Of a stretch of DNA of 36,479 bases, positions 3,447-34,694 are shown in pieces. Under the pieces are notes generated by a model that was not told where the DNA came from, made no database searches, and saw nothing but the letters and a program-made list of their open reading frames with translations. This stretch comes from a virus. The position numbers and the translations under genes are program-made. Each line of letters opens with the position of its first letter. Position 1 is the stretch's first letter. The stretch lies in IMG/VR virus record IMGVR_UViG_3300045988_166466; one strand, 5' to 3'.

Positions 3447-4064
3447 ATGACGGAAGCCAAGTTCACATGGTTTCCGAAGCTCACCGTCACGGTGGCCAAG
3501 GTCCCGGAGGATCAGCGAGGAGCAATCCTCTGGGCCTTGGCCCAGTACGGAACCTTCGGCGTCGAGCCGGAGCTCGAGTGGCCGCTCGACGCCATCTTCG
3601 AGGGCCTGCGCGAGGACATCGACAACTCCAAGCGCGCCATATCGAACGGTGGAACGGGGGGACGCGGAAACAAGAAGGGTGCTTCAAGCGACTCGAAAGA
3701 CCCCTTTGAGAACCGCGAAACCCCCCCTTCCGAGGGTTCAAACCCCGCTTGCGATGACATCGAGACGTGGGTTTCGGAAACCGAAAACGGGGGTTTGGAA
3801 GATGCCGAACCCAAACCAAACCATACCAAGCCAGACCATACCAAGCCAAAGAAGAGGTTCGTACCGCCCTCCGTCGATGAGGTTCGCGCCTACTGCGCGG
3901 AGAGGGGCTACACCTTCGACCCCGAGGCGTTCGTGGCCTTCTACGAGTCCAAGGGATGGAAGGTCGGGCGCAACCCCATGAGGTCGTGGCAGGCGGCCTG
4001 CACCACGTGGCAGAAGCGGCAGGGCGGGAAGGGGGCCAGCAATGACGAGTACTCGAATCTCTGA
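3447..4064 (+). CDS. Replisome organizer / replication initiator with a phage-conserved C-terminal domain
   Basis: The C-terminus VDEVRAYCAERGYTFDPEAFVAFYESKGWKVGRNPMRSWQAACTTWQKR resembles the TIGR02220-type domain. It sits upstream of the DnaC-like loader. A low-complexity linker carries DNA repeats. Confidence 0.6.
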   Translation: MTEAKFTWFPKLTVTVAKVPEDQRGAILWALAQYGTFGVEPELEWPLDAIFEGLREDIDNSKRAISNGGTGGRGNKKGASSDSKDPFENRETPPSEGSNPACDDIETWVSETENGGLEDAEPKPNHTKPDHTKPKKRFVPPSVDEVRAYCAERGYTFDPEAFVAFYESKGWKVGRNPMRSWQAACTTWQKRQGGKGASNDEYSNL

Positions 4065-19849: not shown

Positions 19850-20281
19850 ATGAGGGGCGGTCTGCTCAGCATAGAGGCCAAGGGCCTCACCGAGACGATC
19901 AAGGCCCTCCGTGCCATCAACCGAGAGCTCCCTCGCGAGCTCAAGCGCGGCCTGAAGGAGGACGCCAAGCCCATCCTCGCCGACGCCCGCAGCAACGCCC
20001 AGTCCATCGCCTACTCGGGCGCGTACGCGTCGAGCATGGCCATGCGGGCCATGTCGAACGGCGTGCGCATCGTGAGCGACGACCCCGGCGCCGGGACCAT
20101 CGAGTTCGCGCACCGGGGCGCCTTCTACCTATCCGGGAGGCGCCGAGGCCTCCCGGTCGGCGTGCCCTCCGGCAACCCGCCCCGCGCCCTCGTGAGGGCC
20201 GTCCTCGACAACGAGGAGGACGTGAAGAGGGCCGTCGAGAGCCGCATCGAGCAGACCATAAGGAAGTACCTCAATGGGTAA
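19850..20281 (+). CDS. Hypothetical tail-module protein
   Basis: RBS GGGAGG. Confidence 0.5.
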   Translation: MRGGLLSIEAKGLTETIKALRAINRELPRELKRGLKEDAKPILADARSNAQSIAYSGAYASSMAMRAMSNGVRIVSDDPGAGTIEFAHRGAFYLSGRRRGLPVGVPSGNPPRALVRAVLDNEEDVKRAVESRIEQTIRKYLNG

Positions 20282-23200
20282 GGCAAGCATCTCCATCGCC
20301 ATATCCGGCTCCTACAACGGGTCGGCGGTAGAGCGGGCCGAGAAGTCGCTCGACCGGCTCGCGGTGAAGACCGCCGCCGCCGAGGGCTCGATGTCCAAGA
20401 GCTGGGTCGAGGCGGGCTCCAAGGCCGCAGAGCTGGGCGGCAAGATCTACAACCTCGGCGACTCGATGGAGCGGGCGGGCGACACGCTCACTCGCGGCCT
20501 GACGCTCCCGCTCGCGGCTGCGGGCGCAGGGGCCATCGCCGCCGCCACCGACTTCGACGCCGCAGGCTCCAAGATAGACGCCGCGTGCGGCGAGGCCACA
20601 AAGAGCGCCGAGGTGCTGAAGGAGGTCGGGAGCGGCCTCTACAAGGACGGGTGGGGCGAGTCGATGGACGCCATTGCGTCCTCGGCGATACGCGCGCGCG
20701 AGATCCTCGGCGACCTCTCGGAGACCGACATGAGCTACGCCATCGAGGGCGCGATGACCCTCGAGCAGGCGTATGGGAGCGACTTCGCCGAGAGCCTCAG
20801 GGGCGTGAACGTCCTCATGGACAAGTTCGGCCTCAGCGCGACCGAGGCGACCGACCTCATGGTCGCTGGAACCCAGCGTGGGCTCGACTACACCAAGGAG
20901 CTCGGCGACAACCTCTCGGAGTACTCCGGCCGCTGGGCCGACGCGGGCATGTCCGCGTCCCAGTACTTCTCGCTCCTCGAGGCGGGCGCGCAGGGCGGCG
21001 CGTACCAGCTCGACAAGGTCGGTGACTTCCTGAACGAGTTCCTGACCTCGCTCTCGGACGGGCGCATGGAGGAGGGCATCGCCCAGTTCTCGCAGGGCAC
21101 CCAGGCGACCTTCGAGTCCTTCAAGGAGGGCGGCGCCTCCGCTCAGGACGTGCTCAACGCCGTCGTGGGCGAGCTCGCCACCATGCCGGACGAGTACTCC
21201 AAGGCGCAGATAGCCTCCGAGCTGTGGTCCTCGCTCGGCGAGGACAACGCCATGTCCATGATCACGGCGCTCGCGGGCGTGGACGACACCTTCACGGACG
21301 TCGGCGGCGCGGCTCAGGACGCCGGTGACAAGATCAGCGACAACCTCGCGAACAAGGCGACCTCGGCGCTCAGGACTGCTCAGGAGGCGGCGCTGCCGTT
21401 CGCGTCCGTCGCTGTGGACGTCCTCGGCGACGTGGCCGACACCGCGAAGGGCGCCGCCGAGGGCTTCTCCGAGCTTGACGAGGGCACCCAGAACATGGTC
21501 GTGTCCGCAGGGCTGCTGGCTGCCGCCGCCGGTCCCGTCCTCTCCGTGGGCGGCCGCATCGTCAAGGGCGCTGGGTCGGTCGTGACGGCCTACGGCAGGG
21601 TCAAGCAGGAGATAGCGGTCTACGCGGACGCGCTCACCACCACCAACGCCGCCTCGCTCAAGGCGTATCAGGGCAACGAGAAGCTGGCGAAGGCCCTTGA
21701 GCGCAATCCCGCAGCCAAGGCGGCTGGCGGCGTGCAGCAGTACATCGACGCCGTCACCGACGCCAACAAGAAGACATCGGACTACAGCACGTCGGTCAAG
21801 AGGCTCGAGCGCGAGCAGCAGAAGGGCTCCAAGGCAAACACCGAGCTCGTAGAGAACCTCAAGAAGGAGGTCGCCGAGCGCAAGAGCGTGGCGGACGCGG
21901 CCAAGGGCACCGTCGAGGGCTACAAGGCATCGGCGGCGGCCGCGCAGACGAGCACCGCAGCCGTCACCGCCCAGAGCGTCGCCATGAAGGCCGCAGCGGT
22001 CGCCGGGACCGCGCTCAAGGCTGTCCTCGCGACCGCCATACCCGTGCTCGCCATCACCGCCATAACCTCGCTGGTCTCCTACTTCCAGCAGGCCGACGAG
22101 AAGGCGCGGACGTTCACCGCCGCGACCGAGGGCCTCACCTCGGCGACCGAGAAGGGCGTGAGCGCGTCCAACGCGGGGGCGGAGGCGCTTGAGGGCTACG
22201 GCCAGTCGGCTGGCGTCGCCAAGGTGGACGTCGATGAGATGCTCGAGTCCCAAGCACAGCTCGCCGAGACCATCAGCGACACCAACGTCTCCGCGTCAGC
22301 CCAGATGGCCCAGCTTCAGCAGGCGTACTCGACCATCCAGCAGTACGCAAACCAGTCCGACCTGTCCACCGACGCGCAGGCGCGCCTCAAGACCGCCGTC
22401 GAGACCGTGAACGACCTGTGCGGCACGCAGATAGAGGTGACGGACGCGGCCAACGGCGCCCTGTCCGACGAGAACGGCGCGATTCAGGACGTGACCGCGT
22501 CGCTCGGCGCGTACATCGACCAGAAGATGCAGCAGATCCAGATCGACGCGCAGCAGCAGAACCTCTCCGCGCTCTATCAGCAGCAGGCCGAGGACATCAC
22601 CGCGCTCACTCAGGCGCAGCAGGCGTACAACGACAAGCAGCAGGAGCGCGACGAGTACATCGAGAACTACATAAGCCGATACGGCCAGTACTCGCAGAAC
22701 GCCGAGGAGGCCGCAGAGCTCGCGTGGCAGAACGCCCTCGCCAACTCGGACGAGGCGAAGGCCGTGGAGGAGGCGCAGGCGGCGCTCGACGCGTGCAACA
22801 CCTCCATCGACAACGTCTCTTCCTCCATGAGCGCTCAGGCGGCGATAGCGGAGGGCAGCTCCACGAGCATGCGGAACATGGTCCTCGCGAGCTCGACGGT
22901 ATCCACGGCCATGAACGCCGTCGGCGGGGACATCAACGACTTCGCCACGGACCTGAGCAACGCGGGCGTGTCCGTGTCAACCTTCCGGAGCCTCAGCGAC
23001 GAGCAGCTCGCCCAGCTCGTGGCGTCTTGGGACGGCACCTCAGAGAGCATCGTCACGACGCTCGACGGCATGGGCGTGGAGATGGGGGACGCGGGGCTCA
23101 ACGCTGCCACCGCCCTCGCGAACGGCATGGCGAGCGGGCAGGTGGACGTGGACTCCGCCACGAGCATCCTCAAGGCCGCCGCAACGGGCGACTGGTCGAG

Positions 23201-24359
23201 CGTCTCGTCCCAAATGAGCAGCGCGGGCATCAGCCTCCCGCAGAGCGTGGCGGACGGCATCACATCCAACAGCTTCACCGCATCCGGCGCCACCAACACC
23301 ATGCTGTCCATGATCGCCCTACAGCTTACGGGCGGGGACGTCCCGGCCGCCGCGCAGCTGCTCGGCCACGACATCGACCAGGGCCTCGCCGACGGCATCG
23401 CCAACGGCACGCTCTCAGACGAGCAGGCGGCGCTCCTCGGCGAGGACGTCATCAACCGGGCCAAGGACACGCTTGAGTCGCACTCGACCTCTCAGGCCTT
23501 CTACCGCATAGGCTCGGACGTGGACGCGGGCCTGTCCCTCGGCATCAGCGGCAACACCTCCGGCCCGCTCGGGGCGATAGGGCAGCTCGGACAGTCCCTC
23601 ATCGATCGCATCAGCGGGCTCCCGGGAGAGGCGCAGGCGACCGGAAGCGGGGCGTCCGGCGGCCTGTCCGCAGGCCTCGCGGCGGGCGTCGGCTCCGTCG
23701 CCGCAAGCGCGCTGAGCCTCGCGAGCTCCGCGTCGTCTGGCGTCGCGGGGACTCCGTCCGACCTTTCCGGCAAGGGCCGCAGCGCATCCAGCAACTTCGC
23801 CAGCGGCATCGGCTCCGGCGTCGGCGCAACCCGCACAAGCGCCGACAGGCTCTCGAGCGCGGCCTCGAGCATGGGCGGCGGGGACTCGTGGACGTGGGGC
23901 TCGCACCTCGCGAGCAACTTCGCTAACGGCATCAGCGCCGGAATCAGCTGGGTCTCGAGCGCGGCCGCGAGCATCGCCCAGGCGGCGAAGAACGCCATCG
24001 GCTTCTCCGTCCCGAAGGAGGGGCCGTGGTCCGGAAGGGAGAAGGGCGGCGAGACCTCGGGCCTCCACCTCGCGCAGAACTTCGCGCGCGGCATGCTATC
24101 CGGGGCGCCCGCCGTCTCGTCGGCGGCGCGGGCACTCATGGGCAGCGCCGCGCTCACCGGCTCCGCGACATACGGCACCGCCGCGTCTCAGGCCCGGGCC
24201 ACCGGGCAATCTCGCGATGACGTTATCGTCCTGCTGACGGAGCTCATCGGCGAGGTGTCGGCCCTCCGGGCGGAGCTAGGCCCCACCATCGCCGACTACT
24301 CGCCCTCGTTCCCGACCGAGCGGCAGGCCAAGAGGAAGGTGCAGGAGTGGACTCGCTGA
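20274..24359 (+). CDS. Tape measure protein (1361 aa)
   Basis: Length, Ala/Gly/Ser-rich repetitive helical composition, and position. Confidence 0.9.
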   Translation: MGKASISIAISGSYNGSAVERAEKSLDRLAVKTAAAEGSMSKSWVEAGSKAAELGGKIYNLGDSMERAGDTLTRGLTLPLAAAGAGAIAAATDFDAAGSKIDAACGEATKSAEVLKEVGSGLYKDGWGESMDAIASSAIRAREILGDLSETDMSYAIEGAMTLEQAYGSDFAESLRGVNVLMDKFGLSATEATDLMVAGTQRGLDYTKELGDNLSEYSGRWADAGMSASQYFSLLEAGAQGGAYQLDKVGDFLNEFLTSLSDGRMEEGIAQFSQGTQATFESFKEGGASAQDVLNAVVGELATMPDEYSKAQIASELWSSLGEDNAMSMITALAGVDDTFTDVGGAAQDAGDKISDNLANKATSALRTAQEAALPFASVAVDVLGDVADTAKGAAEGFSELDEGTQNMVVSAGLLAAAAGPVLSVGGRIVKGAGSVVTAYGRVKQEIAVYADALTTTNAASLKAYQGNEKLAKALERNPAAKAAGGVQQYIDAVTDANKKTSDYSTSVKRLEREQQKGSKANTELVENLKKEVAERKSVADAAKGTVEGYKASAAAAQTSTAAVTAQSVAMKAAAVAGTALKAVLATAIPVLAITAITSLVSYFQQADEKARTFTAATEGLTSATEKGVSASNAGAEALEGYGQSAGVAKVDVDEMLESQAQLAETISDTNVSASAQMAQLQQAYSTIQQYANQSDLSTDAQARLKTAVETVNDLCGTQIEVTDAANGALSDENGAIQDVTASLGAYIDQKMQQIQIDAQQQNLSALYQQQAEDITALTQAQQAYNDKQQERDEYIENYISRYGQYSQNAEEAAELAWQNALANSDEAKAVEEAQAALDACNTSIDNVSSSMSAQAAIAEGSSTSMRNMVLASSTVSTAMNAVGGDINDFATDLSNAGVSVSTFRSLSDEQLAQLVASWDGTSESIVTTLDGMGVEMGDAGLNAATALANGMASGQVDVDSATSILKAAATGDWSSVSSQMSSAGISLPQSVADGITSNSFTASGATNTMLSMIALQLTGGDVPAAAQLLGHDIDQGLADGIANGTLSDEQAALLGEDVINRAKDTLESHSTSQAFYRIGSDVDAGLSLGISGNTSGPLGAIGQLGQSLIDRISGLPGEAQATGSGASGGLSAGLAAGVGSVAASALSLASSASSGVAGTPSDLSGKGRSASSNFASGIGSGVGATRTSADRLSSAASSMGGGDSWTWGSHLASNFANGISAGISWVSSAAASIAQAAKNAIGFSVPKEGPWSGREKGGETSGLHLAQNFARGMLSGAPAVSSAARALMGSAALTGSATYGTAASQARATGQSRDDVIVLLTELIGEVSALRAELGPTIADYSPSFPTERQAKRKVQEWTR

Positions 24360-25168: not shown

Positions 25169-26121
25169 TCGCATCCACGGACATGACCAAGCGCCTCGCC
25201 ACCGAGGACTTCGAGCTGGACCTCGAGATGGGGCTCGGCACGGACAACGACTTCGAGCTGACCACGCCCGAGAGGGTCTACGGTATGGAGGCCGTGTTCT
25301 TCCCCGGCACTGAGTACGGCGGCGTCGTTGACGAGGACGAGCCGGTCATGGGCGACGGCGGCGAGAGCGTCTCCTACCACGGCGTCACGTGGACCGGCGT
25401 CCTCGACCAGAACGTCACGCGGCCGCCGAGCGGCCAGTCGCACCTCGCCGTCTCCGGCACCGCCGAGGAGTGCATCTCCGCGCTCCTCTCGTCGTGCGGG
25501 GTTGGCGCACCGTTCGCGGTCCCCGAGGGGGAGACGGGCTCGGTGTCCTACACCGTCCCGCGCTTCGCAACGCTCTACGAGGCCATCGTCGGCGCGCTCT
25601 CCTCGGCGGGCCTAGCCCTCGGGATGGAGTGCGCGGACGGCGAGGTGAGGCTCTACGCCAAGGCCCCGGCGACCATAGACGAGACGCAGGGCGTCGGCTT
25701 CGACGCCAAGCGCGGGTACCGGCCCGTCAACCACCTCGTGGTGCTGGGCAAGGGCGAGATGCAGGAGCGCGAGGTCATCGACCTGTACGCGGACGATGAG
25801 GGCAACGTCTCGACCACCCAGAGCATCTTCGGCCTCGCGCACCGCTCCGAGGTCTACGAGCTGTCAAGCAGCGAGGGCGACGAGCTCAGGTCTGGCGGCG
25901 AGAAGAAGCTCCGGGAGTATCAGGAACAGAGGGACTCCGTCAAGATCACCGTCCCGGAGGGCGTGGACGTCTCCATCGGCGACACGCTCTCGGCGACCTC
26001 TCCGAAGTACGGCATCCGTGCGAGCGCGAGGGTCACGGGCGTCGTGGTCGAGGCTTCGGCCGGTACGGTGTCGGTCACGCCGAGGACCGACGGCGACATA
26101 GAAGTGAAGGACTACGAATAG
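25156..26121 (+). CDS. Tail tip/baseplate (Tal-like) protein
   Basis: Position. GTG after GGAGGGAG. Confidence 0.5.
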   Translation: MLLVIASTDMTKRLATEDFELDLEMGLGTDNDFELTTPERVYGMEAVFFPGTEYGGVVDEDEPVMGDGGESVSYHGVTWTGVLDQNVTRPPSGQSHLAVSGTAEECISALLSSCGVGAPFAVPEGETGSVSYTVPRFATLYEAIVGALSSAGLALGMECADGEVRLYAKAPATIDETQGVGFDAKRGYRPVNHLVVLGKGEMQEREVIDLYADDEGNVSTTQSIFGLAHRSEVYELSSSEGDELRSGGEKKLREYQEQRDSVKITVPEGVDVSIGDTLSATSPKYGIRASARVTGVVVEASAGTVSVTPRTDGDIEVKDYE

Positions 26122-26129
26122 GAGTCGAA

Positions 26130-26357
26130 ATGGGAAAGATCGAGGGAATCACGGAGTGGGAGTGCGACCGCTGCGGCGAGAAGCACTTCGCGCCCAAGGG
26201 CGACAGCTACGTGAAGGAGTGGGGCCAGCCCAAGCGCATCAACTCGTCCCTTGACGAGGCGACGTGCACGCTCTGCCCGACGTGCCTGAGCGAGTACAAG
26301 ATGCTCGTGGCCGCGCACGACAAGGACTTCGCCAGCTTTCTGAAGGGAGAGAAGTAG
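26130..26357 (+). CDS. Small Zn-ribbon protein (CxxC...CxxC)
   Basis: RBS TAGGAG. Lies directly upstream of the receptor-binding protein gene. Confidence 0.45.
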   Translation: MGKIEGITEWECDRCGEKHFAPKGDSYVKEWGQPKRINSSLDEATCTLCPTCLSEYKMLVAAHDKDFASFLKGEK

Positions 26358-27152
26358 ATGGAGATCATCACCGCAGGGGACGGCACCGCCCACGTCAGCT
26401 CGGCGGACGACGGCACCATCTACGCAGGAATCGCGGGCAACGAGTGCTACGTGACCGGCGTCGGCGACAGGCTCTCGTGCACCATGCAGGGCGCCAACAC
26501 GGCTCTGTTGGGCACCGGCGTCGGCATCATGTACGGCCGCGCCTTCCGCGTGGCCATGCCCGAGGAGGTGACGATACAGTCCGGCACCCAGTCACAGCGC
26601 CGAAACGACGTGATCTGCGCCCACTTCACCACATCCTCCGAGGGCCACGAGTCCGGCGAGCTCGTCGTGCTCAAGGGCACGCCGACCTCCGGGCAGGAGG
26701 CGGAAGACCCCGAGATCCCGTCGGGCGACATCCTCGAGGGCGCGACCGAGGCGTACATGCCGCTGTGGCGCATCCCGCTCGACGGCATCAACGTGGGAGA
26801 GCCGGAGGCGATGTTCGACGTCCTCATGTCCATGAGCGAGCTTCAGGGTGAGATCGCTGAGGTCCGGGATTCCGTATCCCAGATGCGACGTGTGTTCTCG
26901 GGCTCGAAGGTCATCACGCTCAACAACGCAGGATACGGGACGTTCCTCACCGACTCTGAGTACCGCTCCGTGGTCGGAAGGAGCTTCGACCAGGCGTCCG
27001 ACTGCGTGTATGCGATGAACGGCGACGTCGACGCTGTGAACGCGCCGGTGAAGGGCACGAGCTACGTCCCGTCATCAAAGACCATAATCTTCTCCCTCGA
27101 CAGCGCGCGCTCGGGAAAGATCAGGATTAACTACCTAATCGTCGCACGATAG
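26358..27152 (+). CDS. Receptor-binding protein / tail fibre. Constant N-terminus (to about 26869) plus the currently expressed C-terminal cassette C0 (26870..27152)
   Basis: RBS GAAGGGAGAG and position after Dit/Tal. The in-frame crossover core TTCCGTATCCCA at 26870-26881 encodes ..D-SVSQ.. Confidence 0.65.
   Translation: MEIITAGDGTAHVSSADDGTIYAGIAGNECYVTGVGDRLSCTMQGANTALLGTGVGIMYGRAFRVAMPEEVTIQSGTQSQRRNDVICAHFTTSSEGHESGELVVLKGTPTSGQEAEDPEIPSGDILEGATEAYMPLWRIPLDGINVGEPEAMFDVLMSMSELQGEIAEVRDSVSQMRRVFSGSKVITLNNAGYGTFLTDSEYRSVVGRSFDQASDCVYAMNGDVDAVNAPVKGTSYVPSSKTIIFSLDSARSGKIRINYLIVAR
26870..26881 (+). repeat. Site R0: shufflon crossover core TTCCGTATCCCA inside the receptor-binding protein gene (in frame)
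   Basis: Exact 12-mer shared with R1, R2, R4, R5, R6 and R7. Confidence 0.85.
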
Positions 27153-27166
27153 CTTTCCGTATCCCA
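27150..27166 (+). repeat. Site R1: TAG-CTTTCCGTATCCCA
   Basis: The stop codon of the receptor-binding protein gene forms the first 3 nt. Confidence 0.9.
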
Positions 27167-27437
27167 ACAACCCAGAATCATCATCGGCACCGGCATATGG
27201 ACGGCCTCAGCAGGAAGCGACAGGCTCACGCTCTGGACGAGAGAGCAGTTCACGGATAAGTTCGGGGCGCCGTTCAACAACACATACGACTGCCTCGCCG
27301 CGATGAACGGAGACGCCGCCGCGCAGGGCAACGCGAAGGTGCTCGGATGCTGGTACGAATCAGGCACGATAGGATGCCACCTGAGTGGGCATGCTACCGG
27401 CGTCATCCGAATAAACTACGCCATATTCCTTCATTGA
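27153..27437 (+). CDS. Silent alternative C-terminal cassette C1 (promoterless, in frame after the site)
   Basis: Opens with LSVSQ and ends ..GVIRINYAIFLH*, paralogous to the tail of C0 (..IRINYLIVAR*). Confidence 0.7.
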   Translation, partial: LSVSQQPRIIIGTGIWTASAGSDRLTLWTREQFTDKFGAPFNNTYDCLAAMNGDAAAQGNAKVLGCWYESGTIGCHLSGHATGVIRINYAIFLH

Positions 27438-27454
27438 CGGCTTTCCGTATCCCA
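27435..27454 (+). repeat. Site R2: TGA-CGG-CTTTCCGTATCCCA
   Basis: Read directly. Confidence 0.9.
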
Positions 27455-27749
27455 TGAGATTGCACAAGGCTGCGTCTGTATGGCGACGGGGGCCATAGCC
27501 ACCGTGTGCGTCGACTTCGTTGCGTCAAACCCTGCAGGGTCGTATACCGCGCTCGGCACGCTGCCTGATGGCGTGGTCCCCGCAGAGACGGCTCTTGGCT
27601 CGTACAACGCCGCGCTGGCCTTCAGGGGCTCAGCATCAGGCGGCCAGTCGGGCATGATCACCGTTAACACAGAGACCCGCGGCGTGACGATATGGACCTC
27701 AACAGCCGATAAGTACTATACGGGCAGCGTGACATTCCCCGTGCGATAG
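27438..27749 (+). CDS. Silent alternative C-terminal cassette C2
   Basis: In frame after R2 and ends at TAG. Includes ORF 27480..27749. Its tail ..TIWTSTADKYYTGSVTFPVR is paralogous to C6. Confidence 0.7.
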   Translation, partial: RLSVSHEIAQGCVCMATGAIATVCVDFVASNPAGSYTALGTLPDGVVPAETALGSYNAALAFRGSASGGQSGMITVNTETRGVTIWTSTADKYYTGSVTFPVR

Positions 27750-27763
27750 CATTCCGTATCCCG
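27747..27763 (+). repeat. Site R3 (variant): TAG-CATTCCGTATCCCG
   Basis: 11 of 12 core positions are identical. Confidence 0.8.
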
Positions 27764-28070
27764 GATTGTCACCGGGACGGTGACCAAGAGCATAAAGCAG
27801 CCGAGCGGCACCGACTGGGCGTACATTACGTCCTGCCTGTCCTACGACGAGGTCGAGGACATACTCGGGCGCCCCTTTGACGTCACGAGGGACCAGTTCT
27901 ACGCGACGAACGTCAGATGGGAAGCGTGTCAGGTGATCGTGGTGCCGTTCGTCCAGAAGATGCCTCGGGGAGGAGTGCTCAACGCCGCCGCCCTCACGCC
28001 GACAGGGCAGGGCGGCGGCGGGCAGACCAAGAGCCTCACAATCGGTTGGACCATCATCAAGGGCTATTAG
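27750..28070 (+). CDS. Silent alternative C-terminal cassette C3
   Basis: Includes ORF 27780..28070. Confidence 0.7.
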   Translation, partial: HSVSRIVTGTVTKSIKQPSGTDWAYITSCLSYDEVEDILGRPFDVTRDQFYATNVRWEACQVIVVPFVQKMPRGGVLNAAALTPTGQGGGGQTKSLTIGWTIIKGY

Positions 28071-28084
28071 CTTTCCGTATCCCA
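28068..28084 (+). repeat. Site R4: TAG-CTTTCCGTATCCCA
   Basis: Read directly. Confidence 0.9.
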
Positions 28085-28466
28085 AGTTCAGGCAGACCTG
28101 CCCTCTGGGGCCAAGCGTATCACCGTGAGCGGGGTCACGGCGTCGTATAACGGCGGCACCGTCCAGTGTGACGCATGGAGGCTCAGCGGCCTCGGCATCG
28201 CCATCGTGCAGGTGCCCGTTAGCAAAGCTGGGAGGTCCCTCAGATTTTCCAGCCAGTCGGGCGGCATATGGCTTTCTGAGACCGTGACCGTCAATCTGCC
28301 GAGCGGGCTCGTCGCGAGCAACGAGGGCGTATGCTTCGGCGGCGTGCGGAACGGTCACGCATGGCTTGTCGCCTTCACCTTCAACGGCAGCTCCATCAGC
28401 TTTGCCGTCGCAACGACGGCTAAGGACCAGCAGCCGTATCAGCTGACGGTCGCCTTCAGCTGCTGA
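28071..28466 (+). CDS. Silent alternative C-terminal cassette C4
   Basis: Includes ORF 28125..28466. Confidence 0.7.
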   Translation, partial: LSVSQVQADLPSGAKRITVSGVTASYNGGTVQCDAWRLSGLGIAIVQVPVSKAGRSLRFSSQSGGIWLSETVTVNLPSGLVASNEGVCFGGVRNGHAWLVAFTFNGSSISFAVATTAKDQQPYQLTVAFSC

Positions 28467-28483
28467 CGGCTTTCCGTATCCCA
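28464..28483 (+). repeat. Site R5: TGA-CGG-CTTTCCGTATCCCA
   Basis: Read directly. Confidence 0.9.
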
Positions 28484-28814
28484 TGTTCTTTGGGAGGGCA
28501 GCGCATCCTCGCTCGATGTGGAGCTTCCGGGCCTGTCGCGGGCCAAGGTCCTGCTCTTCGATTTCTCCGTCAAGGGCAAGCACGTCGGCACGGGGGTCTG
28601 CGCCCCGCGCCAGGGGCAGAACGCCGCCATGGCGTGGGGAATCACCGAGAGCGAGAGGCTGACCATGGTGCGCTTCCGGCCCACGATCGACGGGGACCGC
28701 CTGAGCTTCTCCTACGGGTACTGCTCCTACTCGGAGTTCGCATACAAGCTGGGTGAGCCGCTGGTGTTCGTTGACGGCGTGGGTGCAAGCCTGACGAGGA
28801 TCGTCGCTCTGTAG
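28467..28814 (+). CDS. Silent alternative C-terminal cassette C5
   Basis: Includes ORF 28518..28814. Confidence 0.7.
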   Translation, partial: RLSVSHVLWEGSASSLDVELPGLSRAKVLLFDFSVKGKHVGTGVCAPRQGQNAAMAWGITESERLTMVRFRPTIDGDRLSFSYGYCSYSEFAYKLGEPLVFVDGVGASLTRIVAL

Positions 28815-28828
28815 CTTTCCGTATCCCA
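28812..28828 (+). repeat. Site R6: TAG-CTTTCCGTATCCCA
   Basis: Read directly. Confidence 0.9.
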
Positions 28829-29141
28829 AGCGATAGACGATTGGATCGCATGCATAAGGGTCGGCAAAATCGGAATCATCATCGCCGATAATATCGCGTC
28901 GGACAAGGCGAGCGGCTATACGACCTACACCATGCCGGACGGGATGGTGCCGGATGACTCTCTGCTGTCGGATTCGAGCAATACCGGGTTCTCCGCGCCG
29001 CTCTCCTATCGGGGGAAACCGTCTGAGGGTCAATCGGGCTTCATGTCCCTCACGAAGAAGAGCGGAGCATGGTATCTGGATGTCTGGACGTCCACGACGG
29101 CCAAATACTATCTTGGCGAGCTTGTGTTCCCGATCCGCTAG
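28815..29141 (+). CDS. Silent alternative C-terminal cassette C6
   Basis: Includes ORF 28932..29141. Its stop TAG lies inside the palindrome GCTAGC, shared with the stop of the inverted cassette C7. Confidence 0.7.
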   Translation, partial: LSVSQAIDDWIACIRVGKIGIIIADNIASDKASGYTTYTMPDGMVPDDSLLSDSSNTGFSAPLSYRGKPSEGQSGFMSLTKKSGAWYLDVWTSTTAKYYLGELVFPIR

Positions 29142-29509
29142 CCTACCGGGTAGCTCAGGGAGCCTGAGAAGACGCCCCATGTAGACGAGTCTCCCGGCGC
29201 GTAGAGCGAACCGATCTTGACGGCGCCCGCCGCATCGACCTCCATATAGAGCCACGAGCCGTCGTTCTTGGTGCCGAGCGGCTGCCTGTACGCCCTCGAC
29301 GGCCTGTGGCCCGCCTTGATGTGGCCCGCGACGGAGGGCGTCGCGAAGATGGTGGCAGTGCCGGACTGATTCCACCGCTCGACGGTCACGGTGACGATGC
29401 CCGCAATCTCATAGGCCGTCACGTCGATGTCATCCCACGTCTGGTCCTGCCTCACGCTCGTCATCTGTCCCAGGGCGGCGATGTCATCGGTGTTCTGGGA
29501 TACGGAAAG
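29138..29509 (-). CDS. Silent alternative C-terminal cassette C7 in inverted orientation
   Basis: On the minus strand, the site at 29512..29496 is followed in frame by LSVSQNTDD...SLSYPVG*. Includes ORF 29138..29464. Confidence 0.7.
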   Translation of the reverse strand, partial: LSVSQNTDDIAALGQMTSVRQDQTWDDIDVTAYEIAGIVTVTVERWNQSGTATIFATPSVAGHIKAGHRPSRAYRQPLGTKNDGSWLYMEVDAAGAVKIGSLYAPGDSSTWGVFSGSLSYPVG

Positions 29510-29512
29510 CTA
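29496..29512 (-). repeat. Site R7, inverted copy: TAGCTTTCCGTATCCCA on the minus strand. Its TAG is the stop codon of the tyrosine recombinase gene
   Basis: Exact reverse complement of the R1/R4/R6 sequence. Confidence 0.9.
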
Positions 29513-30385
29513 TGCAGCCGCAAGCATCGCCTCCTCATAGGCATCGGCGGCTCGACCCACGACCGTCCGGAAGCTCATCAAATAGTGCTGCACGCAGGTG
29601 TCCACGCCGGTGTGCCCGAGTGCAACCGCGACGTCCTCTATCGCCGCTCCCGCCTCAAGGGCTATCGTGGCCCATGAGTGCCTGAGGCAGGTCATGGGCA
29701 CCCACGGGAGGGCGAAGCGGCGGCAGAACCGCTGGAAGCGCCCCGCTATCTGATGGGGGGCGAGCGCGCCGCGCAGCCTCCCCGAGCGGAGGGCGCCGCG
29801 CAGCTGCCGGAGCCTTGAGAGCGCCCACCTCGGCACGCGCAGCCATCTGTCCGATAGCTTCGTCTTGGTGTCGTATTCCACCAGCTCCCCGCCTACCCAG
29901 TGCGCGCCCCGGCGCACGTGCACCCAGCCCCGGCGCCAGTCGAAGTCCGACCAGTCAAGCCCGCATGCCTCCGAGCGCCTGAGCCCTAGCGCGGCCTCGC
30001 ACAGAACGACGGCCTCCCACTCCTGCCCGCGTATGCCCCTGAGCGTCTCGCGCTCCTGCTCGGCGGTGAGCACCGGTCGGCGCCTCCTCGGCGTCTCGGG
30101 CAGCTCGATTCCCTGCGTGATGTCCCATATGCGCAGATGGGCCTTGCGGATGACCCACCTGTAGATCTGCCTGAAGGTCTTGAAGGCCTTCTCGGCGGCA
30201 CCGGCCATCTCGAACCCGTCCACCCACGCCTGAAGCTCGTCGTGCGTTATCCCTTCGACCTCGCGGCCCTCCCACGCGGGCATGAGATGTCTGTTTATAG
30301 CCGAGGCGTAGCCCTCCAACGTGTTGCCCCTGAGCCTCTTCGATTTGTCTTCCCAGTACTTCTCAACGGCGGTCTCGAACAGCAT
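29510..30385 (-). CDS. Tyrosine site-specific recombinase, proposed shufflon recombinase (Rci-like role)
   Basis: Motifs GLRRSEACGL (box I Arg), LRHSWAT (HxxR), LGH, and VQHY (catalytic Tyr). RBS GAAGGGA. TTG 30400 is an alternative start. Confidence 0.85.
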   Translation of the reverse strand: MLFETAVEKYWEDKSKRLRGNTLEGYASAINRHLMPAWEGREVEGITHDELQAWVDGFEMAGAAEKAFKTFRQIYRWVIRKAHLRIWDITQGIELPETPRRRRPVLTAEQERETLRGIRGQEWEAVVLCEAALGLRRSEACGLDWSDFDWRRGWVHVRRGAHWVGGELVEYDTKTKLSDRWLRVPRWALSRLRQLRGALRSGRLRGALAPHQIAGRFQRFCRRFALPWVPMTCLRHSWATIALEAGAAIEDVAVALGHTGVDTCVQHYLMSFRTVVGRAADAYEEAMLAAA

Positions 30386-30404
30386 CTCTCGTCCCTTCAA
30401 ACCG

Positions 30405-30458
30405 AAAAATCCCAGACGCGCGTTCTCGCGACGTCCTCTCTCATCGTCTGGGATTTTT
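30405..30458. promoter_or_regulatory. Perfect 14-bp inverted repeat AAAAATCCCAGACG/CGTCTGGGATTTTT with a 25-nt loop, between the divergent recombinase and lysis-cassette genes
   Basis: Read directly. Coordinates are ±1. Confidence 0.6.
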
Positions 30459-30516
30459 GCAATCTCACGCCGCGATTACCATCTCGCCGAACATCGCCGG
30501 AGGCATTGGAGGCCGA

Positions 30517-31041
30517 ATGGGAGACGAGCTTGCAGGGGGTTTCGAGGCGGCCGCCGTTGCCGAGCCGATAGCGGCGCTCCTCGCCTTCGTCGTGGTCGTC
30601 GTGTGCTTCGTGGTCGTCAAGTGGGGCATGCCGCAGCGCCGAGCCCTCAAGGAGAAGAAGCTCGAGAACGAGCGCGCCATCGAGGAGAAGAAGCTCGAGA
30701 TCGAGCGCTACCGAATCGAGGTTCAGGAGGCCGCCGACAAGGCCCTCGACTCACGCGAGCGCGAGCGCATCAAGACAACACAGCAGCAGGTGGCAGCGCA
30801 GAACGAGCAGACGCGCGTCATCGAGACGCTGTCGAACGGCCAGCAGGCGCAGACGCGAATCCTCGAGGTCCTATCGACGCAGGTGGGCGACTCCAAGGAT
30901 CGAAGCCACGAGATGGGAGGGCGCTTGGAGCGCACGGAGGTCGCGGCAGAGCGAATCGACACGACAACCAGCCACATGGCCAAGCAGCTCGATGAGGTTC
31001 ATGCAATCGTCGTGCGCCGGAAGGCGGCGTGCGATGACTAG
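30517..31041 (+). CDS. Membrane protein with one TM helix and a long coiled coil (first gene of the lysis cassette)
   Basis: ATG after GGAGG. TM helix IAALLAFVVVVVCFVVV. The track ORF starts at TTG 30457. Confidence 0.5.
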   Translation: MGDELAGGFEAAAVAEPIAALLAFVVVVVCFVVVKWGMPQRRALKEKKLENERAIEEKKLEIERYRIEVQEAADKALDSRERERIKTTQQQVAAQNEQTRVIETLSNGQQAQTRILEVLSTQVGDSKDRSHEMGGRLERTEVAAERIDTTTSHMAKQLDEVHAIVVRRKAACDD

Positions 31042-31058
31042 GAGAAAGGGGCTCCATT

Positions 31059-31292
31059 ATGACCAAGGAAAGCATCAAGAAGTGGTGCATCGCCGCAGGC
31101 GTCCGAGCGGTGAAGACCTCCGCGCAGACGGCCCTCGCAGCCATGGGTACGACCGTGGTCGCCATCACCGCTCTGGACTGGCCGCAGATCGCCGCACTTG
31201 CGGCAACGGCTGCGGTCGCCTCCGTGCTGACGAGCATCGTCGGCGTGCCGGAGGTCGAGGAGGGCACAAGCCCGCTCTCAAAGCAGCGGTAG
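31059..31292 (+). CDS. Holin (Gram-positive phage type)
   Basis: 77 aa with two hydrophobic segments and a charged C-terminus, directly upstream of the lysin genes. Confidence 0.6.
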   Translation: MTKESIKKWCIAAGVRAVKTSAQTALAAMGTTVVAITALDWPQIAALAATAAVASVLTSIVGVPEVEEGTSPLSKQR

Positions 31293-33006: not shown

Positions 33007-33210
33007 ATGCAGACGATCAACGCCAAGTACACCCCGACCAAGCAGAAGGGCGCTCAGGAGGTGAGCCTCTACATCGAGGGGCTCCCCGAGAGCGAGGTCA
33101 CGCAGGCCGACTACGTGGCCGACCCCGCCGGTGACACGCCGACCAAGGCCGAGTTCATCTCCCTGCGCGACGCCATGGTCACCGCTGGCGTCATGAAGCC
33201 CGCGAGCTAG
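33007..33210 (+). CDS. Hypothetical small protein
   Basis: RBS AGGAGGA. Confidence 0.4.
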   Translation: MQTINAKYTPTKQKGAQEVSLYIEGLPESEVTQADYVADPAGDTPTKAEFISLRDAMVTAGVMKPAS

Positions 33211-34694
33211 GCCGCGCGGCTGAAGCGCAGGTAGACGGCCCCGTTCAGGACGGCCATCATCGTTCGAGTATTTTTGCAAACGGGGCACCATTCGAATGAA
33301 GTACGAACCCGCGAGAGCCTCAACCTCGCGGGTTCGTTCTTTTCCGCGTCGAAGTTCATGGTCACGACGACCTCCTCATCGGAGACCATCACCTGATACA
33401 CGAAGCCCTGCAGGAGCAGATCGTCGGTGAGCGTGGCGCCGAACTGCAGGAACCGGGTGAAGTTCTCCACGCTGAACACCTTGCGGTCGTACATGGCGAG
33501 CTCGTGCTCGGCCCGCTCCTTCTGGGCCTCGAGCTCCTCCGCCCTCTCCTTGGTGCCCGGTACCACGATGCCCTGCTCCACGGCCTTCAGGATGTTGGAC
33601 AGGCCGGTCTCGGCCGCTCTCAGCGCCGCTGCGGCCTGCTTCCGGTGCTCGGCCACCTCCTTGGGCTCCCCGGCGCCGACGCACATCTCGGCTATCCTAC
33701 GAGCCTCATCGGGCTGGGAGAGCAGCTCGCGCAGGGCGTCAATGATGGAACCCTCAAGCCAGTCGCGGCGGACGGGCCTGACCTCCTTGCAGCTGCCGCA
33801 GGAGTAGTACTCGTACTTCCGATTGGAGGAGCCGCGCCCGGACACCCCGCGCATGTTGCGGCCGCACGCCGAGCAGATCACGCGACCGGAAAGGGCGAAC
33901 TCGCCCCACTCCTCGTTGCGGCGCTGCTTCTTGCTCTTGACCATCTGAGCCCTCCTGAACGTCTCGTCGCTCACTATCCTCGGCATGCCGTCCTTCTTGG
34001 TGACGCCGCCCCACGAGTAGATGCCCCGGTACTTCTCGTTGTGCAGCATGTGGTTCACGAACGTGTCCTTTATCGGGTTGCCAGCCCTCGACACCACGCC
34101 CCTCCGGCGAAGGTCCATCGCTATCGAGTTGACGGTCTCCCCGTGGACGCGGCGGCGGAACACCTCGCGGACTATCTCCGCCTCGTCGGGGTCTATCTCG
34201 TAGCGCCCGTCATCGCCGGTCCTGTAGCCGAAGCACCGCACGCCGTTCGTCCTGCACTTCATGGCGTTGGTGGTCATGTCCCGCTTGACGCGCACGGAGG
34301 TCTTGCGGGACTCGCACGCCGCTAGGCCCTCGAGAAGCTTCTCGTAGATGATGCCCTCGGGCGAGTCTGGTATGGCCTCGAGGGCGGAGACCAGCCTCAC
34401 GCCCCTCTTCTGAAGCTCGCGCTTGTATATGGGCGCGTCGAAGGGGTCTCGGCTGAACCTGTCCATCATGTAGACGAGCACGATGTCCGATTCACCGGCG
34501 TTGGCTATCATCTGCTGGAACTGCGGGCGCTCGTCGGTCGTACCCGAGATTGCATAGTCGCAGTACTCCGCGACGATGGCGTAGCCCTCGCGGGCGCACC
34601 AGTCGCGGCACACCCTGAGCTGGCCCTCGATAGACTCCTCGCGCTGCTTGGAGCACGAGAACCGCGCGTAGAGAACGGCGGTCTTCTGTGACAT
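33207..34694 (-). CDS. Large serine recombinase (phage integrase)
   Basis: Catalytic-Ser context AVLYARFSCSKQREE, plus a recombinase domain and a Zn-ribbon/coiled-coil C-terminus. 495 aa. Confidence 0.9.
   Translation of the reverse strand: MSQKTAVLYARFSCSKQREESIEGQLRVCRDWCAREGYAIVAEYCDYAISGTTDERPQFQQMIANAGESDIVLVYMMDRFSRDPFDAPIYKRELQKRGVRLVSALEAIPDSPEGIIYEKLLEGLAACESRKTSVRVKRDMTTNAMKCRTNGVRCFGYRTGDDGRYEIDPDEAEIVREVFRRRVHGETVNSIAMDLRRRGVVSRAGNPIKDTFVNHMLHNEKYRGIYSWGGVTKKDGMPRIVSDETFRRAQMVKSKKQRRNEEWGEFALSGRVICSACGRNMRGVSGRGSSNRKYEYYSCGSCKEVRPVRRDWLEGSIIDALRELLSQPDEARRIAEMCVGAGEPKEVAEHRKQAAAALRAAETGLSNILKAVEQGIVVPGTKERAEELEAQKERAEHELAMYDRKVFSVENFTRFLQFGATLTDDLLLQGFVYQVMVSDEEVVVTMNFDAEKNEPARLRLSRVRTSFEWCPVCKNTRTMMAVLNGAVYLRFSRAA
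33304..33344 (+). terminator. Rho-independent terminator at the end of the lysis operon, lying inside the 3' coding region of the convergent integrase gene
   Basis: GAACCCGCGAG-(9-nt loop)-CTCGCGGGTTC followed by GTTCTTTT. Confidence 0.6.

Follow-up and report, generated by a model that had tools for sequence, protein, structure and literature searches.

Why does the stop codon of a recombinase gene form part of a DNA exchange site, and why does the reading frame run on behind it into a gene fragment that has no start codon? The question is raised by a locus in a stretch of viral DNA (IMG/VR virus record IMGVR_UViG_3300045988_166466; 36,479 nucleotides, all of it referred to here as the window), in which a tyrosine recombinase gene, rin, adjoins an array of short repeats, the rix sites, and of partial genes, the cassettes. 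Our results show that this locus is a Rin-type shufflon, the known DNA-inversion switch of the head of a phage receptor-binding protein (RBP), and that its carrier is a temperate siphovirus or prophage of the Collinsella/Coriobacteriaceae type. The identification is made because the Xer-like invertase, the constant RBP part (Rc), the head cassettes (Rv) and the rix repeat match the published architecture. As to the stop codon, the explanation that we favour and consider probable is that strands are exchanged inside the rix core, and that every cassette, like rin itself, has a private stop held at one place in the site by overlapping constraints.

The stop codons and sites of the window

On the minus strand the recombinase ends ...AYEEAMLAAA-TAG, and this TAG (29512-29510) is the first triplet of TAGCTTTCCGTATCCCA, the rin-proximal site R7. 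The sequence that follows, CTT TCC GTA TCC CAG AAC ACC... (LSVSQNTDD), continues in the same frame, which remains open for 122 codons until a TAG at 29140-29138. An earlier note on this DNA had described both the position of the rin stop as the opening triplet of the site and the passage of the frame, with no start codon, into the cassette C7, and both observations are borne out. Eight copies of the 15-mer GCTTTCCGTATCCCA with at most two mismatches occur at 26867-29510, seven on the plus strand and one on the minus strand; shuffled versions of the window gave a mean of 0.54 matches, and nine were never reached. A ninth match, with three mismatches (GGTTTCCGAAACCCA, 3768-3782, minus strand), lies far from the shufflon and is most likely due to chance. 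The 11-bp rix core of the window is TTCCGTATCCC, and the sites are the following:

26865 to 26880, plus strand: expression site E, CGG GAT TCC GTA TCC C, with the dyad GGGAT-TCCGT-ATCCC; read in frame as R-D-S-V-S, no stop
27150 to 27165, plus strand: silent site S1, TAG CTT TCCGTATCCC
27435 to 27453, plus strand: silent site S2, TGA CGG CTT TCCGTATCCC, the stop being one codon further upstream
27747 to 27762, plus strand: silent site S3, TAG CAT TCCGTATCCC
28068 to 28083, plus strand: silent site S4, TAG CTT TCCGTATCCC
28464 to 28482, plus strand: silent site S5, TGA CGG CTT TCCGTATCCC
28812 to 28827, plus strand: silent site S6, TAG CTT TCCGTATCCC
29497 to 29512, minus strand: rin-proximal site R7, TAG CTT TCCGTATCCC, whose TAG at 29512-29510 is the recombinase stop

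In all seven silent sites TCC-GTA-TCC is preceded, at a distance of one or two codons, by an in-frame stop; the six on the plus strand read TAG-CTT (27150, 28068, 28812), TAG-CAT (27747) or TGA-CGG-CTT (27435, 28464). Of all positions in the window, 3.8% have a stop in either of these codon slots, so that seven out of seven corresponds to a chance probability of about 1e-10. The spacings between consecutive sites (285, 288, 309, 321, 399 and 345 nt) are each divisible by 3. The eighth site (26865-26880) is placed inside the expressed gene of 264 aa, and is devoid of a stop. The same arrangement of stop and site had been claimed for every cassette; this holds for the seven silent sites, but in two of them the stop is one codon further upstream, and the expression site has none.

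Conservation of the stop in related loci

We compared about 75 loci of the Coriobacteriia type with 64 of the Bifidobacterium type, the latter found via the published rix sequence. Site positions are numbered relative to the T of TCC, T(0), and loci and proteins of the comparison set bear the prefixes L and P. In the Coriobacteriia-type loci TAG occupies positions -6 to -4 in 185 of 248 unique silent sites, the consensus being TAG-CAT-TCCGTATCCC, and for 167 of 234 unique pairs of successive co-oriented sites the stop of the intervening cassette starts precisely at -6 of the second site (165 TAG, 2 TGA). The figure for the Bifidobacterium-type loci is 100 of 105 pairs, all of them with TAG. 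The TAG-N3 layout is kept in locus L041 despite a rin only 34% identical and a core that reads TTCGGTAGCCC, and it is found as TAGCTTTCCGTAACCC in the isolated Bifidobacterium phage PMBT6. The suggestion that the stop is a conserved companion of silent sites in homologous loci thus holds well beyond the window, and the coupling of stop and site is frequent, not obligatory. TAA was never encountered in the -6 slot among about 265 unique junctions; by a crude count, the ordinary ORFs (open reading frames) of the window end 17 times with TGA, 13 times with TAG and 4 times with TAA.

Which bases, then, are constrained? At 46 unique expression sites, GGG at -5 to -3 and AT at -2 to -1 mirror the ATCCC at +5 to +9, with GGG and ATCCC nearly invariant. 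The codon at -6 to -4 of these sites is GGG in 36, CGG in 8 and TGG in 2; the amino acid varies (G, R or W) while the two Gs do not, which speaks for a constraint on the DNA itself at -5/-4 of the expression site. In silent sites G(-4), A/T at -2 and T(-1) are retained, but position -5 is A. All 46 expression sites have G(-4), as do 223 of the 248 silent sites, among them 38 of the 63 with no TAG there. With G fixed at -4, TAG is the sole stop that fits (one change turns NGG into TAG), which accounts for its exclusive use. Conservation of the site spans only -6 to +9, and in the flanks of silent sites no position from -15 to -7 is comparably conserved.

The exchange region and the side to which the stop belongs

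The coding features on which the following comparisons depend are these:

26358 to 26864, plus strand: Rc, the constant N-terminal part of the RBP gene, residues 1-169, upstream of the expression site
26871 to 27152, plus strand: C0, the expressed head domain (Rv), 93 codons, stop TAG at 27150-27152; it adjoins rin in L193
27156 to 27437, plus strand: C1, silent, 93 codons, stop TGA at 27435-27437
27444 to 27749, plus strand: C2, silent, 101 codons, stop TAG at 27747-27749; absent from L193
27753 to 28070, plus strand: C3, silent, 105 codons, stop TAG at 28068-28070
28074 to 28466, plus strand: C4, silent, 130 codons, stop TGA at 28464-28466
28473 to 28814, plus strand: C5, silent, 113 codons, stop TAG at 28812-28814
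28818 to 29141, plus strand: C6, silent, 107 codons, stop TAG at 29139-29141, tail to tail with C7
29138 to 29506, minus strand: C7, silent, 122 codons, stop TAG at 29140-29138; no other cassette has the orientation of rin in this arrangement
29510 to 30385, minus strand: rin, armless Xer-like tyrosine recombinase of 291 aa (Pfam Phage_integrase and Phage_int_SAM_3)

Pairs of sites that share one flank only reveal which bases travel with which side. Among 246 pairs with the same right and a different left flank, and 412 pairs with the same left and a different right flank, positions -6 to -2 track the left flank and +7 to +9 the right flank; positions -1 to +6 are nearly invariant and uninformative. 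Exchange is therefore placed inside TTCCGTAT (-1 to +6). Since the stop segregates with the upstream flank, it belongs for good to a single unit, be it a cassette or rin. The idea, put forward in the earlier note, that the stop caps whichever cassette happens to lie upstream is accordingly not supported in that form, as -6 to -2 always segregate with that flank.

An alternative isomer illustrates the point. L193, a contig of a metagenome-assembled genome (GCA_048488335.1; 5001-8719), represents the same phage at about 99% identity. Here Rc is joined at the site to C7 (P0132, 293 aa, 99% identity), and the left arm of rin, gcggctgcaTAGct, is joined to C0 (rin-TAG-CT-core-C0), the reciprocal junction. 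The silent cassettes come in the order C0, C4, C1, C3, C5 and C6, each with its own stop and spacer. In L003 the gcggctgcaTAGct left arm is joined to yet another cassette; in L001 and L193, C3 is preceded by a different left arm (TGACGGCTT). Fusions of Rc to other cassettes were also observed, to C6 in P0134/L194 (95-98% identity) and, in a related Rc, to C1 at residue 172 in P0122 (90% identity). Inversion at rix thus yields alternative full-length RBP genes. Several contigs end at or just past the rin-proximal site (L002, L003, L014, L069, L085 and L091), which is the expected effect on assembly of population heterogeneity at an invertible site.

Proposed mechanism

We propose that the rin invertase recombines the 11-bp rix cores TTCCGTATCCC. 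One of these lies in the RBP gene at the hinge between neck helix and head, and the remaining ones front seven head cassettes with neither promoter nor start codon. Strands are exchanged inside TTCCGTAT; the upstream cassette (or rin) keeps its stop and the 3-nt spacer on the left of it, and what lies on the right stays with the downstream cassette. The exchanged module consists of a half core, a head cassette, its own stop, 3 nt and a second half core, with no non-coding DNA between modules, and rin is the last of the upstream units, with an ORF that extends into the left arm of the site at the end of the array. Two constraints may meet at the stop. The left arm would be a degenerate mirror of the right arm, in which TAG is the sole stop that fits G(-4); in addition, loss of the stop would lead to read-through into the next in-frame cassette, and its displacement upstream would truncate the head domain. 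The make-up of the modules, the region of exchange, the linkage of the stop to its upstream unit, its conservation across the family and the natural isomers are observations; from the pattern of conservation we infer that Rin contacts G(-4) and the left arm, and that selection, and not descent alone, keeps the stop in place.

Several points weigh against this explanation. The isomers come from different samples and not from one clone. C2 is missing from L193, otherwise 99% identical to window 26358-30385, and therefore events other than inversion (deletion between direct rix sites, or cassette gain) also occur from time to time. About 12% of cassette ends are in another frame or are separated from the next site by more than 12 nt. 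C or T, rather than G, is found at -3 in 179 of the 185 TAG-bearing silent sites, a preference that is not explained by a stop combined with G at -4. Finally, the putative dyad and the role suggested for G(-4) are read from conservation alone.

Alternative explanations

The layout could also reflect descent and compaction only, the modules having been duplicated from an ancestral unit of core, cassette and TAG-CAT by unequal exchange at rix, and the TAG bases playing no part in recognition by Rin. This account, which we consider possible though not probable, would fit the compactness of phage genomes, the identical junction in very different lineages and the existence of related cassette pairs: C0 and C1 (...IRINY...), and C2 and C6 (...KYY.G..FP.R), are alike at their C-terminal ends. 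Against it, the positions from -15 to -7 lack comparable conservation in silent sites, and the published Rv cassettes share just about 6-30% identity (PMC6109161). Moreover, the neutral transition from TAG to TAA is absent from the approximately 265 junctions, and G(-4) is invariant at the expression sites, where it is not in a stop and the amino acid varies.

A second possibility, along the lines of the earlier note, gives the stop a function of its own within the site: it would be selected as a cap or insulator, and the frame leading from rin into the cassette would belong to the design. The in-frame stop within two codons of all seven silent sites in the window and the family-wide conservation of TAG at -6 are in its favour. 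We nevertheless regard it as unlikely, as a stop that never changes its upstream partner would not cap a varying one, and the behaviour of the recombinase gene in relatives does not support a shared frame. Among 67 unique relatives of the Coriobacteriia type, 62 have the first base of the rin stop 4-11 nt ahead of T(0), in forms that include TGATTCC (30 cases, the stop overlapping the arm in a non-cassette frame), TAGGGCATTCC (10), TAGGATTCC (6) and TAGCTTTCC (3, the lineage of the window). The stop is in the cassette frame in only 15 of these 62 and in the other two frames in 32 and 15, no more than expected by chance, and this distribution leads us to reject a functional frame shared by rin and C7. 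Frames vary likewise in the Bifidobacterium-type loci, where rin ends with TGA or TAG 0-7 nt before the GGGAT arm, and in PMBT6 the rin TGA comes one base before an out-of-frame TAG that is still part of the repeat. Adjacency of the rin stop to the terminal site is thus conserved; continuity of the frame into the cassette is not, and is peculiar to the sub-lineage of the window. Insulation, for its part, is merely what any stop provides, and an out-of-frame rin stop can leave the rin-proximal cassette with no nearby in-frame stop upstream, as in L009 and L067, where 25 open codons precede it. Translation of a silent cassette has no start codon at the site to begin from, so that the regular stop by which the ORF before it ends would be protection enough.

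It is also conceivable, but in our opinion doubtful, that there are two classes of sites, a dyad expression site and silent sites with a deliberately degenerate TAG-C(A/T)T left arm, in which the stop would double as an arm-weakener that biases Rin. The idea is modelled on the asymmetric sfx sites of the plasmid recombinase Rci (bioRxiv 10.1101/2024.10.25.620183). If it were true, inversions between expression and silent sites would be favoured over silent-by-silent exchange or deletion between direct repeats, which would answer the puzzle of directionality for an armless invertase raised in 2018 (PMC6109161), and the preference for C or T at -3 would belong to the same design.

That the small ORFs are independent genes starting at internal ATG or GTG codons, the repeats being intergenic signals, is very improbable: although inside each cassette gene callers list an ORF of 69-113 aa, it is from the site onwards, and not from the called start, that every cassette is open; the distance between site and called start varies; and other samples contain the same cassettes joined to Rc precisely at residue 172. 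Recoding or read-through of TAG late in infection, which would produce concatenated head domains from cassettes that are in frame and mostly one TAG apart, has a negligible probability, given that the window has no tRNA gene, that many ordinary ORFs close with TAG and no interruption is seen in long structural genes, and that two cassette boundaries use TGA.

Topology of the array

Exchange within the core, with private stops, remains our preferred explanation, and the orientation of the sites also speaks for it. In 44 of 45 unique loci the array falls into two blocks: the sites of the first point the same way as rin, those of the second the same way as the expression site, and the blocks meet tail to tail at one junction only, a form that can be written >^a <^b. 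Inversion preserves it, because reversing a segment bounded by one site of each block reproduces it. The window, with its seven direct sites and one inverted site, might seem anomalous; we reject this view, since >^1 <^7 is simply the extreme member of the inversion-preserved form. The order in L193 can be derived from that of the window by a flip between the rin-proximal and expression sites, four junction-spanning inversions and the loss of C2, and the tail-to-tail pair of C6 and C7 is intact in both. The stops of these two cassettes, on plus and minus strands, overlap in the palindrome CTAG (29138-29141), with zero bases between the tails.

The sole exception among the 45 loci is L039, with the orientations ><><<, which may reflect a false site call or a genuine rearrangement other than inversion. 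In three loci (L035, 1115-3060; L036; L093, 7001-8790) rin is truncated, only residues 1-177 or 1-233 finding a match, and the remaining rix sites all have the orientation of the expression site; these look like frozen shufflons that are no longer able to invert.

The receptor-binding protein, the recombinase and their surroundings

The locus is embedded in a siphovirus tail module comprising a tape measure gene (20274-24359), a Dit-like gene, a minor tail protein gene, a 75-aa gene and the 264-aa gene. The latter, the whole expressed RBP ORF (26358-27152; PHROG 9994/13141), has homologues that are 93-99% identical in Rc, over residues 1 to about 175, and differ in their C-termini. The AlphaFold (AF2) model of the protein, with a pLDDT (predicted local distance difference test) score of 86, consists of an N-terminal beta domain, a neck helix (159-173) and a C-terminal beta head (179-262), and its confidence drops in the 171-180 block, where the site-encoded DSVSQ is positioned. 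A fold search with this model returned the RBP of lactococcal phage p2 as the top solved match (2bsd, 2wzp; E = 4e-5), a likeness that came from the fold search, the sequence search of the PDB with the RBP having given no match. Rc as far as the fusion point comprises residues 1-171, and the eight cassettes, of 93-130 codons each, all have a frame that is open from the site and no start codon. The head of one homologue, P0141, is an H-type lectin domain (PF09458).

By Pfam, rin has no arm-binding domain, and its closest solved structures are XerA (4a8e) and XerD (1a0p). The invariant tyrosine of the rin alignment, Y268, is the presumed nucleophile and lies 23 residues before the C-terminus. 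In tblastn searches the recombinases adjoining TTCCCTAACCC sites, those of IMG/VR loci L128-L191 and of PMBT6, showed 38-47% identity to rin. At the PMBT6 locus (L192, MK932884; 4462-6380) the gene annotated as 'integrase' is a Rin-type invertase located beside three TAGCTTTCCGTAACCC-type sites and an RBP-like gene with an internal GGGATTCCGTAACCC; the rin-proximal copy is degenerate (TTCCGTAATC) and is followed by an ORF of only about 27 codons.

Two other features of the window deserve mention. A large serine recombinase of 495 aa is encoded on the minus strand at 33207-34694, beside helix-turn-helix regulators; in the identical phage L126 it shows Resolvase, Recombinase and Zn_ribbon_recom domains. 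This enzyme, distinct from the invertase rin, probably acts as the prophage integrase, in which case the phage has an integrase of the serine type as well as an invertase of the tyrosine type. An inverted repeat of 14 bp (AAAAATCCCAGACG...CGTCTGGGATTTTT, 30405-30458), separated from the start of rin by 20 nt on the upstream side, occupies part of the divergent intergenic region. Its loop measures 26 nt, T-runs are present on either strand, and it resembles a bidirectional terminator or an operator; its folding energy is ordinary compared with shuffled sequences (z = -0.41), and a scan of 26000-31100 for promoter and terminator consensus sequences gave nothing informative.

Distribution and significance

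Relatives of rin were found in dozens of Collinsella, Olsenella, Slackia and Eggerthella genomes, and metagenomes yielded several hundred recombinase homologues (E <= 1e-10), which are abundant in gut metagenomes. A scan of IMG/VR with the single rin protein gave nothing, and one with an alignment query succeeded; a DNA search of the locus against 50,697 GenBank phages gave no match. Recombinases at 22-35% identity (L043-L063, L100-L125) had no rix-like array near their stop codon and were set aside as ordinary integrases. Two Collinsella genomes, L076 and L072, hold about 16 and 12 rix sites, respectively, far more than published Rin shufflons.

Rin shufflons are therefore widespread and can be large, and host-range switching by exchange of RBP heads is probably common among phages of gut Actinomycetota. 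The rix site can now be given a testable definition, namely a silent unit of 16-17 nt (TAG-N3-core), exchange inside TTCCGTAT, a dyad expression site and one tail-to-tail junction per array. These rules should help annotation, as gene callers label rin 'integrase' and the cassettes hypothetical, and assemblies break at the sites; they would also be useful if Rin were to be employed as a compact tool for shuffling. A new kind of system does not emerge from them.

Comparison with known systems

Inversion of the C-terminus of a host-recognition protein is known in phages from Min (p15B), a multi-site system, and from Gin (Mu), Cin (P1) and Pin. These are serine invertases with other sites, whose inversion depends on Fis and an enhancer, whereas Rin is a tyrosine recombinase. 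A tail-fibre switch of this kind was rejected for the window, where the recombinase belongs to the Phage_integrase family and the only serine recombinase in the vicinity is of the large integrase type and lies 3.7 kb away. Tyrosine recombinases invert DNA at short repeats within coding sequence in the vsa and hsd loci of Mycoplasma pulmonis and in the pneumococcal hsdS locus (CreX/IvrR), and there too one expression site is accompanied by silent, start-less partial genes; the recombinase clades, the targets and the repeat sequences differ from those of Rin. We know of no stop-in-site rule for these shufflons.

The shufflon of R64 and other IncI plasmids resembles the present one in its tyrosine recombinase gene, which adjoins the array, in multiple inversion and in the swapping of adhesin C-termini (pilV). 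Its sfx sites are also asymmetric, with a conserved core and one conserved arm, the other arm being poorly conserved; they measure 31 bp (12-bp left arm, 7-bp core, 12-bp right arm), and Rci has an extra C-terminal domain (bioRxiv 10.1101/2024.10.25.620183). The target of Rin, in contrast, is a phage RBP and not a pilin, the enzyme has a length of 291 aa, and conservation of its site is limited to about 16 bp. The left arms of R64 are simply variable, whereas in Rin loci TAG-C(A/T)T recurs in the silent left arms, and the expression site has dyad symmetry. An R64-type shufflon was accordingly rejected: rin lacks an extra C-terminal domain like that of Rci, because Y268 sits so close to the C-terminus, and conservation is confined to -6 to +9, the sequence beyond +9 depending on the cassette.

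The full-text literature that we found on Rin shufflons consists of two reports. The shufflon of Bifidobacterium prophages, such as Bb423phi1 and Bl157phi1, is built from rin, Rc and Rv cassettes; its rix has 11 bp (TTCCCTAACCC), and sequencing reads revealed inversions (Mavrich et al. 2018, PMC6109161). In clade 1 prophages of Eggerthella lenta, the repeat is ttccgtat, located 'just after a stop codon' (PMC8778435). The window core TTCCGTATCCC contains this 8-mer and differs from TTCCCTAACCC at 2 of 11 positions. Also in common are the armless Xer-like tyrosine invertase beside the RBP locus, Rc with several Rv cassettes, a short asymmetric repeat before each Rv with one copy inside the RBP gene, a separate phage integrase and the existence of inversion isomers. 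The window differs in its host lineage (Collinsella/Coriobacteriaceae) and in an array of 8 cassettes, up to about 16 in relatives, against the published 5. Its sub-lineage has a silent-type left arm at the rin-proximal site, so that the rin stop is the TAG of the 17-mer, unlike most Rin relatives, in which TGA or TAG abuts a GGGAT-type arm in any frame. Both reports treat rix as a bare repeat of 8 or 11 bp and mention its adjacency to stop codons or 3' ends in passing (PMC6109161, PMC8778435). The TAG-N3 rule, the dyad of the expression site, the mapped exchange region and the running of the rin stop into the terminal arm appear to be undescribed and are incremental additions to this work. 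The locus of the window is thus a new, large member of the known Rin system, to which it adds a modest, apparently undescribed rule about the site.

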